A stretch of DNA of 64,000 bases, taken from the NCBI RefSeq assembly GCF_003334335.1, contig NZ_QOWQ01000011.1; one strand, written 5' to 3'. The notes beneath the pieces were generated by a model. The model did no database searches. It was not told where the DNA came from and saw only the letters and a list, made by a program, of their open reading frames with translations. Source of the DNA: Escherichia coli (GTDB lineage Bacteria; Pseudomonadota; Gammaproteobacteria; Enterobacterales; Enterobacteriaceae). Numbering within the stretch: the stretch's first letter is position 1; every line of letters begins with the position of its first letter. Position numbers and translations under genes: made by a program. Below, in pieces: positions 10,387 to 54,510 of this stretch.

Positions 10387-10406
10387 AACTGTTTTTTTAT
10401 CCAGTA
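10387..10406 (+). promoter_or_regulatory. LexA (SOS) box of uvrB
   Basis: AACTGTTTTTTTATCCAGTA, of the form CTGT-N8-CCAG, about 75 bp upstream of the uvrB start. Confidence 0.8.
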
Positions 10407-27826: not shown

Positions 27827-29191
27827 ATGTCTTTCGATTCTTTGGGTTTAAGCCCTGATATCCTGCGCGCCGTTGCCGAGCAGGGTTACCGTGAACCCAC
27901 CCCTATTCAGCAGCAGGCGATCCCTGCGGTGCTGGAAGGCCGCGACCTGATGGCTAGCGCCCAGACCGGCACCGGCAAAACAGCGGGCTTTACGCTGCCG
28001 CTGTTGCAACACCTGATCACTCGCCAGCCGCACGCCAAAGGGCGTCGTCCGGTACGTGCGCTCATTCTTACCCCGACCCGTGAACTGGCGGCGCAGATTG
28101 GCGAAAACGTCCGTGATTACAGCAAATACCTGAACATTCGTTCGCTGGTGGTGTTTGGTGGTGTGAGTATTAACCCGCAGATGATGAAACTGCGTGGCGG
28201 CGTTGATGTGCTGGTGGCAACCCCGGGACGTTTGCTGGACCTGGAACATCAGAATGCAGTGAAGCTGGATCAGGTTGAAATCCTCGTCCTCGATGAAGCT
28301 GACCGCATGCTCGACATGGGCTTTATCCACGATATCCGTCGCGTGTTAACAAAACTACCTGCGAAGCGCCAGAACCTGTTATTCTCCGCGACCTTCTCTG
28401 ACGATATTAAAGCCCTGGCGGAAAAACTGTTGCACAACCCGCTGGAAATCGAAGTGGCACGCCGCAATACCGCGTCTGATCAGGTGACCCAGCACGTTCA
28501 CTTTGTCGATAAGAAACGCAAACGCGAATTGCTGTCGCACATGATTGGGAAAGGGAACTGGCAGCAGGTGCTGGTGTTTACCCGTACCAAACACGGCGCT
28601 AACCATCTGGCTGAACAGCTCAATAAAGATGGCATCCGTAGTGCGGCGATCCACGGCAATAAATCGCAAGGTGCGCGTACTCGTGCGCTGGCTGATTTTA
28701 AATCGGGCGATATTCGTGTACTGGTGGCAACTGACATCGCTGCGCGCGGCCTGGATATTGAAGAGCTGCCGCACGTCGTCAACTATGAACTGCCAAACGT
28801 ACCTGAAGATTATGTCCACCGTATCGGGCGTACCGGTCGTGCGGCTGCTACCGGTGAAGCGTTGTCGCTGGTGTGTGTTGATGAACACAAACTGCTGCGT
28901 GATATCGAAAAACTGCTGAAAAAAGAGATCCCGCGCATTGCGATTCCGGGCTATGAGCCGGACCCGTCAATCAAAGCCGAACCGATCCAGAACGGTCGCC
29001 AGCAACGTGGCGGCGGCGGTCGTGGGCAAGGTGGTGGTCGCGGTCAACAGCAACCACGCCGTGGGGAAGGTGGCGCAAAATCTGCAAGCGCGAAACCTGC
29101 AGAAAAACCGTCTCGCCGCCTCGGCGATGCCAAACCGGCAGGCGAACAACAACGTCGCCGCCGTCCGCGTAAACCTGCCGCTGCGCAGTAA
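27827..29191 (+). CDS. rhlE: ATP-dependent DEAD-box RNA helicase
   Basis: 454 aa with DEAD, SAT and GKT motifs and an RGG-rich basic tail. Confidence 0.95.
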
Positions 29192-29422: not shown

Positions 29423-29905
29423 TTACTTCTCTATAGCCAATTGTTCGCGCAACTCCATTAAAAGGTAGCCCAGTCGATTCTTGCCCTTACCATGACCACC
29501 GTCTCCCCAGTAAGCATCGTTTTCCGTATGCTCAACCAGTTTTGCGGGCGCGGTTGCCAGCAAGAGCGCACGCAGTTCTGCATGCTGTTCGAATTTAGCG
29601 CGAAGTGCTTTTCGCATCACCTGTTCTTTGACCGACTCCCAGTTTTTACGCAGAGGCTTAGAACGATCGCGCCCCATGCGTGCGGCGACCATAGGGGAAG
29701 AAACCCGACGGATCTCTTCGCGGTATTTTTCATCAAGGAATTTTTGTGCCTGAAAATAGTGTTCTGAGGTGGGCCAGGTTTTCCCGTCAACCTTGATGGG
29801 CCAGGCGGCAAAGTTAGAAAAATCACCGTAGTCATCGCTGGTGCTGTAGAAATTTATGATGGTGTCTTGCATGACGTGTTGGATCCTTTGTGCTCGAACG
29901 GGCAT
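29423..29905 (-). CDS. ybiA: N-glycosidase YbiA (DUF1768)
   Basis: 160 aa, recognised. Confidence 0.9.
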   Translation of the reverse strand: MPVRAQRIQHVMQDTIINFYSTSDDYGDFSNFAAWPIKVDGKTWPTSEHYFQAQKFLDEKYREEIRRVSSPMVAARMGRDRSKPLRKNWESVKEQVMRKALRAKFEQHAELRALLLATAPAKLVEHTENDAYWGDGGHGKGKNRLGYLLMELREQLAIEK

Positions 29906-29990
29906 TAAACCGCATTATGTTGGTGGTTATTGCGAGCCGCTTTCCAGAAACAGAAAAACCATTACCCCTGAAAACCGAAAAATGCCACAA

Positions 29991-30010
29991 TATTGGCTGT
30001 TTATACAGTA
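29991..30010 (+). promoter_or_regulatory. LexA box of dinG (non-canonical left half-site)
   Basis: TATTGGCTGTTTATACAGTA, 15 bp upstream of the dinG ATG; the right half CAGTA is canonical. Confidence 0.65.
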
Positions 30011-30024
30011 TTTCAGGTTTTCTC

Positions 30025-32175
30025 ATGGCATTAACCGCCGCGCTTAAAGCGCAAATTGCCGCCTGGTATAAGGCGCTTCAGGAACAGATCCCCGACTTTA
30101 TTCCCCGTGCGCCGCAGCGGCAGATGATTGCGGATGTCGCCAAAACGCTGGCCGGAGAAGAAGGGCGACATCTGGCGATTGAAGCCCCCACCGGCGTTGG
30201 GAAAACGCTCTCTTATTTGATTCCCGGCATCGCCATTGCCCGCGAAGAGCAAAAAACGCTGGTGGTGAGTACCGCCAACGTGGCATTGCAGGATCAGATT
30301 TACAGCAAAGATTTACCGCTGCTGAAAAAGATCATTCCCGATCTTAAATTCACTGCCGCTTTTGGGCGTGGGCGCTACGTTTGTCCGCGTAATCTGACGG
30401 CGCTCGCCAGTACTGTACCCACGCAACAGGATCTGCTGGCGTTTCTTGACGACGAACTGACGCCGAACAATCAGGAAGAGCAAAAACGTTGTGCGAAGCT
30501 GAAGGGCGATCTCGATACTTATAAATGGGATGGTCTGCGCGATCATACTGATATCGCTATAGATGACGATCTCTGGCGTCGTTTAAGTACCGACAAAGCC
30601 AGCTGCCTCAACCGCAATTGTTACTACTATCGTGAATGCCCGTTTTTTGTCGCTCGTCGGGAGATTCAGGAAGCGGAAGTGGTGGTGGCAAACCATGCGC
30701 TGGTGATGGCGGCGATGGAAAGCGAAGCGGTATTGCCTGACCCGAAAAATTTACTGCTGGTGCTGGACGAAGGCCATCACCTGCCGGATGTGGCGCGGGA
30801 TGCGCTTGAGATGAGCGCCGAAATCACCGCGCCGTGGTATCGGCTACAGCTGGACTTGTTCACGAAACTGGTCGCTACCTGCATGGAGCAGTTTCGCCCG
30901 AAGACCATCCCACCGCTGGCGATCCCTGAACGTTTGAATGCGCATTGTGAAGAGTTGTATGAGCTTATCGCCTCGTTAAACAACATTCTCAATCTCTACA
31001 TGCCTGCCGGGCAGGAGGCAGAGCACCGTTTTGCGATGGGCGAACTGCCAGATGAAGTGCTGGAGATCTGCCAGCGGCTGGCAAAACTCACCGAGATGCT
31101 GCGTGGCCTGGCGGAGTTATTTCTTAACGATTTAAGTGAGAAAACCGGCAGCCATGACATTGTACGTCTGCATCGGTTGATTTTGCAGATGAACCGCGCG
31201 TTGGGGATGTTCGAGGCGCAAAGCAAACTCTGGCGGCTGGCTTCGCTGGCGCAATCTTCCGGTGCACCGGTGACCAAATGGGCGACGCGGGAAGAGCGCG
31301 AAGGGCAGCTACACCTCTGGTTTCACTGCGTGGGAATACGTGTCAGCGATCAGCTGGAAAGGCTGCTGTGGCGCAGTATTCCGCACATTATTGTCACCTC
31401 CGCAACCTTGCGTTCGCTGAACAGTTTTTCGCGTTTGCAGGAGATGAGTGGTCTGAAAGAGAAAGCGGGCGACCGTTTTGTGGCGCTGGATTCCCCCTTT
31501 AACCACTGCGAACAGGGCAAAATTGTTATTCCCCGGATGCGCGTTGAGCCTTCCATCGACAACGAAGAGCAGCATATTGCCGAAATGGCGGCCTTTTTCC
31601 GTAAGCAGGTGGAGAGCAAAAAACATCTCGGTATGTTGGTACTGTTTGCCAGCGGACGGGCGATGCAGCGCTTTCTCGACTATGTGACGGATTTACGTCT
31701 GATGTTGCTGGTTCAGGGCGATCAGCCGCGTTACCGTTTAGTTGAACTGCACCGCAAACGCGTCGCCAACGGTGAGCGCAGCGTGCTGGTGGGCTTACAG
31801 TCATTTGCCGAAGGGCTTGATTTGAAAGGTGATCTGCTCAGCCAGGTGCATATCCACAAAATCGCTTTTCCGCCCATCGACAGCCCGGTGGTGATCACCG
31901 AAGGGGAATGGCTGAAAAGCCTCAACCGCTATCCGTTTGAGGTGCAAAGCCTGCCGAGCGCCTCGTTTAACCTGATTCAGCAGGTTGGGCGACTGATTCG
32001 AAGCCACGGTTGCTGGGGCGAAGTGGTTATCTACGACAAACGCTTGCTGACCAAAAATTATGGCAAGCGACTACTGGATGCATTACCGGTATTTCCGATA
32101 GAGCAACCGGAAGTCCCTGAAGGTATAGTTAAAAAGAAAGAAAAAACGAAATCCCCACGCCGTCGGCGGCGTTAA
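30025..32175 (+). CDS. dinG: ATP-dependent DNA helicase DinG
   Basis: Start set at MALTAALKAQIAAWYKALQ (716 aa) rather than the ORF-track start 45 codons upstream. Confidence 0.94.
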   Translation: MALTAALKAQIAAWYKALQEQIPDFIPRAPQRQMIADVAKTLAGEEGRHLAIEAPTGVGKTLSYLIPGIAIAREEQKTLVVSTANVALQDQIYSKDLPLLKKIIPDLKFTAAFGRGRYVCPRNLTALASTVPTQQDLLAFLDDELTPNNQEEQKRCAKLKGDLDTYKWDGLRDHTDIAIDDDLWRRLSTDKASCLNRNCYYYRECPFFVARREIQEAEVVVANHALVMAAMESEAVLPDPKNLLLVLDEGHHLPDVARDALEMSAEITAPWYRLQLDLFTKLVATCMEQFRPKTIPPLAIPERLNAHCEELYELIASLNNILNLYMPAGQEAEHRFAMGELPDEVLEICQRLAKLTEMLRGLAELFLNDLSEKTGSHDIVRLHRLILQMNRALGMFEAQSKLWRLASLAQSSGAPVTKWATREEREGQLHLWFHCVGIRVSDQLERLLWRSIPHIIVTSATLRSLNSFSRLQEMSGLKEKAGDRFVALDSPFNHCEQGKIVIPRMRVEPSIDNEEQHIAEMAAFFRKQVESKKHLGMLVLFASGRAMQRFLDYVTDLRLMLLVQGDQPRYRLVELHRKRVANGERSVLVGLQSFAEGLDLKGDLLSQVHIHKIAFPPIDSPVVITEGEWLKSLNRYPFEVQSLPSASFNLIQQVGRLIRSHGCWGEVVIYDKRLLTKNYGKRLLDALPVFPIEQPEVPEGIVKKKEKTKSPRRRRR

Positions 32176-32202: not shown

Positions 32203-33165
<963 letters not shown>

Positions 33166-52699: not shown

Positions 52700-52917
52700 G
52701 TTAAGCGAGATTTTGTGCCTGGCAGGCCATTGGGTTGAGAATATTAGAGTATTGGAAGCGCATTATAAGTTCATTCCAGCTCACAGTGAAATCAGATGTG
52801 TACGAAATCACATTTTTTGCCTTTGGCTTGAGTGTAGACCTTAAGCGAGGAGCAGGATCTTCTTTCAGACTTATGGCATAATGCGCGGTTTGTCATATCT
52901 CTTTTCAGGATACGCCT

Positions 52918-54510
52918 GTGTTAGTTTCCAGTAACGTCACCATGCAGTTCGGCAGTAAGCCGTTGTTTGAAAACATTTCCGTCAAATTTGGCGGCGGCAA
53001 CCGTTACGGCCTGATTGGCGCGAACGGTAGTGGTAAATCCACCTTTATGAAGATCCTCGGCGGCGACCTTGAGCCGACGCTGGGTAACGTTTCCCTCGAT
53101 CCCAACGAGCGCATTGGTAAACTGCGTCAGGATCAGTTTGCCTTTGAAGAGTTCACTGTGCTGGATACGGTGATCATGGGGCATAAAGAGTTGTGGGAAG
53201 TGAAGCAGGAGCGCGACCGCATCTATGCTTTGCCGGAAATGAGTGAAGAAGACGGCTATAAAGTGGCCGATCTGGAAGTTAAATACGGCGAAATGGACGG
53301 TTACTCTGCGGAAGCTCGCGCCGGTGAACTGTTGCTTGGCGTGGGAATTCCAGTGGAACAGCACTACGGCCCGATGAGTGAAGTTGCTCCTGGCTGGAAG
53401 CTGCGTGTGCTTCTGGCGCAGGCGCTGTTTGCTGATCCGGATATTCTCCTGCTCGACGAACCGACCAACAACCTCGACATCGACACCATTCGCTGGCTGG
53501 AACAGGTGCTGAACGAGCGTGACAGCACCATGATCATCATCTCGCACGACCGTCACTTCCTTAACATGGTCTGTACCCACATGGCGGATCTGGATTACGG
53601 CGAGCTGCGCGTTTATCCGGGTAACTACGATGAGTACATGACGGCGGCGACCCAGGCGCGTGAACGTCTGCTGGCCGATAACGCCAAGAAGAAAGCGCAG
53701 ATTGCTGAGTTGCAATCTTTCGTTAGCCGCTTTAGCGCCAACGCCTCGAAATCTCGCCAGGCAACTTCGCGCGCGCGCCAGATTGATAAAATCAAACTGG
53801 AAGAGGTGAAAGCCTCCAGCCGTCAGAACCCGTTCATCCGTTTTGAACAGGATAAGAAACTGTTCCGTAACGCGCTGGAAGTGGAAGGTCTGACCAAAGG
53901 GTTTGATAACGGTCCGCTGTTTAAAAATCTCAACCTGCTGCTGGAAGTGGGTGAAAAACTGGCGGTACTGGGTACCAACGGCGTCGGTAAATCAACGCTG
54001 CTGAAAACGCTGGTGGGCGATCTGCAACCGGACAGCGGCACCGTAAAATGGTCTGAGAACGCGCGCATTGGTTACTATGCTCAGGACCACGAATATGAGT
54101 TTGAAAATGATCTGACCGTGTTCGAATGGATGAGCCAGTGGAAGCAGGAAGGCGATGACGAGCAGGCGGTACGCAGTATTCTCGGTCGTTTGCTGTTCAG
54201 CCAGGACGACATCAAAAAGCCAGCTAAAGTGCTTTCCGGTGGGGAAAAAGGGCGGATGCTGTTTGGTAAGTTAATGATGCAGAAGCCGAACATTCTGATC
54301 ATGGACGAACCGACCAACCACCTGGATATGGAATCCATTGAGTCGCTGAACATGGCACTGGAACTGTATCAGGGCACGCTGATCTTTGTTTCACACGACC
54401 GTGAGTTCGTAAGCTCCCTGGCGACCCGCATTCTGGAAATCACCCCGGAACGCGTGATCGACTTTAGCGGTAATTACGAAGATTACCTGCGTAGTAAAGG
54501 GATCGAGTAA
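52918..54510 (+). CDS. ybiT: ABC-F family ATPase
   Basis: 530 aa, GTG start, two ABC domains and no transmembrane domain. Confidence 0.92.

Follow-up and report, generated by a model that had tools for sequence, protein, structure and literature searches.

The DNA analysed here, a stretch of 64,000 nucleotides referred to below as the window, belongs to the Escherichia coli chromosome and displays the gene order rhlE-ybiA-dinG-ybiB, with gene coordinates that are base for base those of the RefSeq annotation of E. coli strain HS. In that annotation, rhlE (27827-29191, plus strand) is followed by ybiA, a variable cassette gene encoding an N-glycosidase/NADAR protein (29423..29905, minus strand), and hcxB starts from 33306. 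Between them lie dinG (30025..32175, plus strand), which encodes an ATP-dependent DNA helicase of 716 aa, and ybiB (32203..33165, plus strand). The dinG open reading frame reaches 1052 bits against the NCBIfam equivalog NF008729, for a cut-off of 598, and is thus recognized as DinG by this model. A 1.1-kb query taken around the site described below matches 5422 of the 5426 complete E. coli genomes, and a search in a plasmid collection returned only mislabelled chromosomal pieces. The tetranucleotide AGGT at 30015..30018 (plus strand), placed 6 nt before the dinG ATG, is a likely ribosome binding site judging from its sequence, and its columns are 87-99% conserved when 79 distinct upstream sequences are aligned.

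Upstream of dinG, the 20-mer TATTGGCTGTTTATACAGTA occupies positions 29991..30010 (no strand being assigned to it), which correspond to 833036-833055 in MG1655. Its identification as the LexA operator (SOS box) of dinG draws together its sequence, an exact match to a published site, its matrix score and its conservation. Positions 15-20 of the box form the canonical right half ACAGTA, and the left half TATTGG is degenerate: positions 3-6 read TTGG where the consensus has CTGT, so that the strict core palindrome CTGT-N8-ACAG (CTG-N10-CAG) is interrupted by two core mismatches. A CTGT is found within the spacer, at positions 7-10. From the end of the box at 30010, 14 nt remain before the dinG ATG (30025-30027). 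The initial annotation had read the letters in the same way, with TTGG replacing CTGT on the left, a second CTGT in the spacer and ACAGTA on the right, and had placed the end of the box 15 bp before the ATG, which is the difference between 30025 and 30010. Its proposal of a non-canonical LexA box upstream of dinG agrees with both the literature and the matrix score.

The primary reference for the ‘asymmetric dinG operator’ of E. coli K-12 is reportedly the work of Lewis and Mount in 1992 (J Bacteriol 174:5110). The box of the window and this K-12 operator are the same object, with the same 20-mer at the same place relative to dinG in the same rhlE-ybiA-dinG-ybiB context, and no difference could be observed between them. 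The site is therefore already known, as a long-characterised asymmetric LexA operator giving dinG its SOS control, and its name comes from the known departure of the left half from the CTG core. The 20-mer TATTGGCTGTTTATACAGTA is the published dinG SOS box, described as ‘experimentally characterized’; a tiling-array study of the UV response includes it in its table of SOS-box motifs and places it upstream of a single UV-induced transcript, ‘ybiB, ding’ (PMC3009722). According to the literature, ybiB belongs to the dinG operon controlled by LexA and shares both the transcript and the operator of dinG. Moreover, Culyba et al. (2018) built synthetic recA promoters carrying native E. coli operator sequences, that of dinG included. 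They classed the native dinG promoter as ‘early’, and both this timing and its low UV ED50 are what a weak operator should give. Other treatments also induce the gene: dinG mRNA increases by log2 1.0-1.7 with ciprofloxacin, and bleomycin raises dinG 1.7-fold in the wild type and not in recA (PMC3305319). In Salmonella, nalidixic acid induces dinG 10.6-fold, and the gene carries one box, 14 bp from its ATG, with a heterology index (HI) of 10.08.

We scored the box with a LexA matrix built from the 17 other published boxes of Table 4 of PMC3009722, dinG being left out. Its leave-one-out HI is 12.8 in one orientation and 11.4 when symmetrised, corresponding to log-odds of 9.8 bits and 13.2 bits respectively. 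Verified weak boxes give close values under the same scoring (polB, HI 12.6 and 9.8 bits; dinB, 11.8 and 11.7 bits), and dinG stands level with them, as the lowest-scoring known box, alone or in a tie. In K-12 the HI has a bimodal distribution, binders peaking at 7.3 and non-binders at 22.3, and the dinG box falls on the binder side. The initial annotation had left the box to be judged on its matrix score, and this score lies within the verified range, not below a binding threshold. Among the 63,981 positions of the window, scanned with the symmetrised matrix, the dinG box ranks second with 13.0 bits. Matches scoring at least as high are expected 0.145 times by chance in Markov-1 simulated 64-kb windows, and at the same rate approximately 3e-4 times in the 119-bp ybiA-dinG intergenic region. 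The only better match in the window is the uvrB LexA box AACTGTTTTTTTATCCAGTA at 10387-10406, located 73 nt upstream of the uvrB ATG (10480), whose 24.7 bits are circular since this box belongs to the training set.

The score of the dinG box is carried by its flanks and by the AT-rich part of its spacer. A search for CTGT-N8-ACAG with at most one mismatch returned 23 matches for 17.5 expected, with the dinG box absent among them, and this pattern is uninformative. We also considered a second LexA register making use of the internal CTGT. It was rejected, as all shifted 20-mers within 15 bp on either side score at most -14 bits; the internal CTGT forms no second LexA site because it lies 4 bp, and not 8 bp, from ACAG. 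Elsewhere in the window, a LexA-like match, GCCTGTGTTAGTTTCCAGTA, was noticed at 52914-52933 (11.95 bits, HI 13.05), where it overlaps the GTG start of ybiT (52918) downstream of a promoter-like element TGgCATAAT at about 52872-52880. This match probably arose by chance.

The conservation of the region was then considered at two scales. Within E. coli, 5405 of 5422 genomes carry the 47-bp segment 29981-30027 without a single change. At the family scale, a species scan using the first 400 residues of DinG as query and one genome per species gave 80 Enterobacteriaceae loci, including Escherichia, Citrobacter, Salmonella, Klebsiella, Enterobacter, Kluyvera, Kosakonia and Raoultella. The dinG box is the best matrix match in all 80 of them, at 13-15 nt from the ATG. 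The alignment of the 79 distinct upstream sequences shows 24 consecutive columns (29986-30009) conserved at 94% or more, most of them invariant, and within them columns 29994-30009 reach 99-100%, the ACAGT of the right half being invariant. Upstream of 29978 the intergenic region is poorly conserved. The first 1200 nt of the coding sequence of dinG, taken from the same species, served as a control. Conservation of 96% or more is reached there by just 6.8% of third codon positions, and the longest uninterrupted stretch of columns at 94% or above has 14 columns, where the operator block has 24.

The 3′ end of dinG offers a further comparison. There, TACTGGATGCATTACCGGTA at 32072-32091, about 110 bp before the ybiB ATG, is LexA-like with 12.1 bits and encodes the residues LLDALPVF. 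Its synonymous sites decay outside Escherichia, and we have rejected it as a separate ybiB operator, considering it a chance match. The contrast with the conserved dinG operator is thus clear.

The box is included in a near-invariant block of 24-27 bp that also contains the motif TGnCACAAT. A classical promoter and terminator scan of positions 29800-30100 found no -35/-10 pair and nothing else, so that the dinG promoter has to be deduced from conservation; a dinG start site is likewise absent from the TSS table of Kim 2012 and from the rows listed for Ettwiller 2016. In the 79 sequences, T29983 and G29984 are 100% conserved, n29985 only 76%, and CACAAT (29986-29991) 96-100%. This succession of T, G, a variable n and CACAAT is the pattern predicted for an extended -10 element under selection (29983..29991, plus strand), which would adjoin the box directly. 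If CACAAT is the -10 hexamer, dinG transcription would start near 29996-29999, the box would extend from about -7 to +13, a classic case of promoter occlusion, and box position 3 would become promoter position -5. The suspicion of the initial annotation that the box probably overlaps the promoter gains from this conserved TG-n-CACAAT abutting the box, and it stays at the level of a prediction.

Alternatively, the same operator could work with another geometry, in which ATGCCA (29982-29987) would serve as -35 and TACAGT (30004-30009) as -10, separated by a 16-bp spacer; the bases under the box would in that case be those of the spacer and the -10, and the start site would lie outside it. Both hexamers have 4 of 6 consensus matches and both lie inside the invariant block. 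Their total of 8 out of 12 is nevertheless below the threshold of the scan, the proposed -35 has A or G as its first base and T in no sequence, and a start near 30016 would leave a leader of 8-9 nt devoid of the AGGT ribosome site at 30015-30018. The conservation of T, G and CACAAT around a variable n is what an extended -10 would show and argues against this pair. We therefore consider such a geometry unlikely, while giving it some weight.

Whichever geometry applies, the 10-bp spacer is invariant, and so more conserved than expected for LexA binding. C29997 and G29999 depart from the AT-rich consensus of LexA spacers, yet both are 99-100% conserved among the 79 sequences. This invariance exceeds what LexA recognition needs, and part of it must have another cause. 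We attribute the extra constraint to the overlapping predicted promoter, that is to its discriminator and start site. The same bases could instead betray a second function of the invariant block, beside LexA, carried by the inverted repeat CTGT-TTAT-ACAG (29997-30008), either as a site for another DNA-binding protein or as a hairpin at the 5′ end of the mRNA. An RNA starting at 29997 does form a 4-bp hairpin in its minimum-energy structure; this hairpin, however, is no better than those of shuffled sequences (z = -0.93, 31 of 200 shuffles folding as well), the leader RNA has no Rfam match, and covariation is impossible as the columns never vary. The repeat moreover occupies the bases predicted to serve as discriminator and start site, an overlap that can account for the constraint, and a second function of this kind appears to us improbable. 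Finally, that the box resembles a LexA site by chance and is conserved only as core promoter is an explanation we hold for practically negligible: a non-canonical left half and the two further matches near 12 bits whose locations seem unrelated to regulation (32072 in dinG and 52914 on the ybiT start codon) speak in its favour, against a published operator bound and characterised with LexA, an induction reported to depend on both recA and damage, and an ACAGT half invariant in 79 sequences whereas the 32072 match decays outside Escherichia.

Returning to the LexA operator overlapping the predicted extended -10 promoter, its left half deserves attention. One position is variable inside the box, position 3 (29993..29993, plus strand), which is the C of CTG in canonical boxes and would be -5 of the predicted promoter. 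Among the 79 distinct sequences it is G in 74, T in 4 and A in 1, and never C: T is found in Escherichia, G in the other genera and A in E. whittamii. The family-wide form of the box is TAGTGGCTGTTTATACAGTA, and the TTG of E. coli is, by this comparison of sequences, a derived variant of it. Since a base other than C is found at position 3 throughout the family, the asymmetry of the operator is ancient and maintained. In the work on promoter position -5 that bears on this point (Haugen 2006, as summarised in PMC10911233), the non-template base is described as being read by sigma region 1.2, with a half-life of the open complex 10-50-fold longer for G than for C. Taken together, this suggests that LexA would prefer a C exactly where the predicted -35-less promoter would tolerate C least, hence the degenerate half-site.

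The other side of the intergenic region is also of interest. The divergent ybiA promoter (29971..29987, minus strand) has its start mapped at 29971: Table S1 of Kim et al. 2012 gives for b0798 a TSS at NC_000913.2 832239 with a leader of 66 nt, and the promoter string given there for ybiA, once reverse-complemented, matches window 29971-30021 exactly. Consequently, the dinG box covers -20 to -39 of the ybiA promoter. An extended -10 is predicted for ybiA on the minus strand, made of TG (29987-29986), n and CATTTT (29984-29979). The two predicted extended -10 elements are thus placed back to back and share a palindromic TGnCA core (29983-29987), in which each TG complements the first two bases of the other hexamer; this would explain why both hexamers begin with CA and not with TA. 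The conservation pattern of the 79 sequences is compatible with both elements. In addition, bleomycin raises ybiA 2.7-fold in the wild type and not in recA (PMC3305319).

A 2024 article (PMC11125620) places both ybiA and rhlE inside the LexA-controlled dinG operon. In the window, ybiA is on the strand opposite to dinG, and rhlE is on the same strand, upstream, with the opposed ybiA between them. Neither gene can therefore be co-transcribed with dinG from the dinG promoter, and any co-regulation of ybiA would have to use the divergent promoter.

Between rhlE and the regulatory region of dinG lies a variable slot. It is occupied by ybiA in the window, and in E. coli E69 the segment 29230-29925 is replaced by 45 bp (positions 1357-1401 of locus L003). 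In E. whittamii the slot measures about 920 bp (positions 482-1401 of locus L002) and contains two abutting open reading frames of 146 aa and 93 aa, which look like a putative toxin-antitoxin pair. Past the variable slot, homology resumes at 29926. Approximately 37% of complete E. coli genomes give no coverage of the ybiA part of the query, and ybiA is absent from all the non-Escherichia loci fetched.

The arrangement of one box between dinG and ybiA resembles that of uvrA/ssb, in which a single box lies between divergent genes and has been treated as shared in a Salmonella study. By analogy, the dinG box may control both divergent genes; the data fit this view without proving it. The two cases differ in that ybiA is a variable cassette missing from many strains, and that its control by LexA is putative. 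The dinG/ybiA region also recalls bidirectional promoters, where a single short AT-rich core with pseudo-symmetry gives rise to both divergent starts (Warman et al. 2021; PMC12825309), the palindromic TGnCA here supplying the TG of the extended -10 on each strand. In bidirectional promoters the usual separations between starts are 18, 10 or 23 bp and the hexamer is shared, whereas the dinG and ybiA hexamers are adjacent and unshared, with a separation of about 27 bp between the mapped ybiA start at 29971 and the predicted dinG start at about 29998. A more ambitious reading would combine these elements: the overlapping promoter would keep the left half degenerate through its -5 base and sigma region 1.2, and a single operator would sit on two back-to-back extended -10 elements sharing TGnCA, so that LexA would also control the divergent transcript, that of ybiA where this gene is present. 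We put this forward as a tentative proposal, rather doubtful when all its parts are taken together.

Compared with canonical gammaproteobacterial LexA boxes, for which TACTG(TA)5CAGTA is the reference form (recA, sulA, umuD, uvrB), the dinG box has the same length of 20 bp, the same TA...TA flanks, the ACAGTA half and the AT-rich 3′ part of the spacer, as well as a matrix score in the verified range and a location predicted to be close to the promoter. It differs from them by its left half TATTGG, with TTG in place of CTG and the C absent in 80 of 80 species, and by being among the weakest operators, with an early induction at a low threshold.

We are thus highly confident that the transcription unit dinG(-ybiB) has its LexA operator at 29991-30010, where it would act by repression over the predicted core promoter. 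The sequence, the matrix score, its rarity, the strict conservation and the constant distance to the ATG come from the present analysis; LexA binding and the induction of dinG by damage come from the literature; the promoter geometry is predicted, and with it the exact mode of occlusion. On this basis, a LexA dimer would sit on the 20-bp site through one canonical half, ACAGTA, and one degenerate half, TATTGG. The first base of the site would also be the final one of the predicted extended -10 (TGcCACAAT), and the site would then cross the predicted start. With the end of the -10 and the start site covered in this way, bound LexA would keep RNA polymerase from forming a productive complex at dinG, the gene repressed through the box. 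Upon DNA damage, self-cleavage of LexA stimulated by RecA would free the dinG promoter. The weakness of the operator would make this repression leaky and lift it early, at low doses of damage, with a modest induction ratio.

These results bring little beyond confirmation of the identity of the site, which is a textbook case within the E. coli SOS regulon, with a 1992 paper of its own and a place in later quantitative work on LexA operators. The locus also illustrates that consensus searches with CTG-N10-CAG overlook real LexA sites, which the full 20-bp matrix combined with phylogenetic footprinting recovers. Beyond this, the comparative data offer a testable reason for the weakness of the operator, namely a single base on which LexA and RNA polymerase would make opposing demands, and they hint at a variable NADAR gene, ybiA, borrowing an SOS-controlled region.
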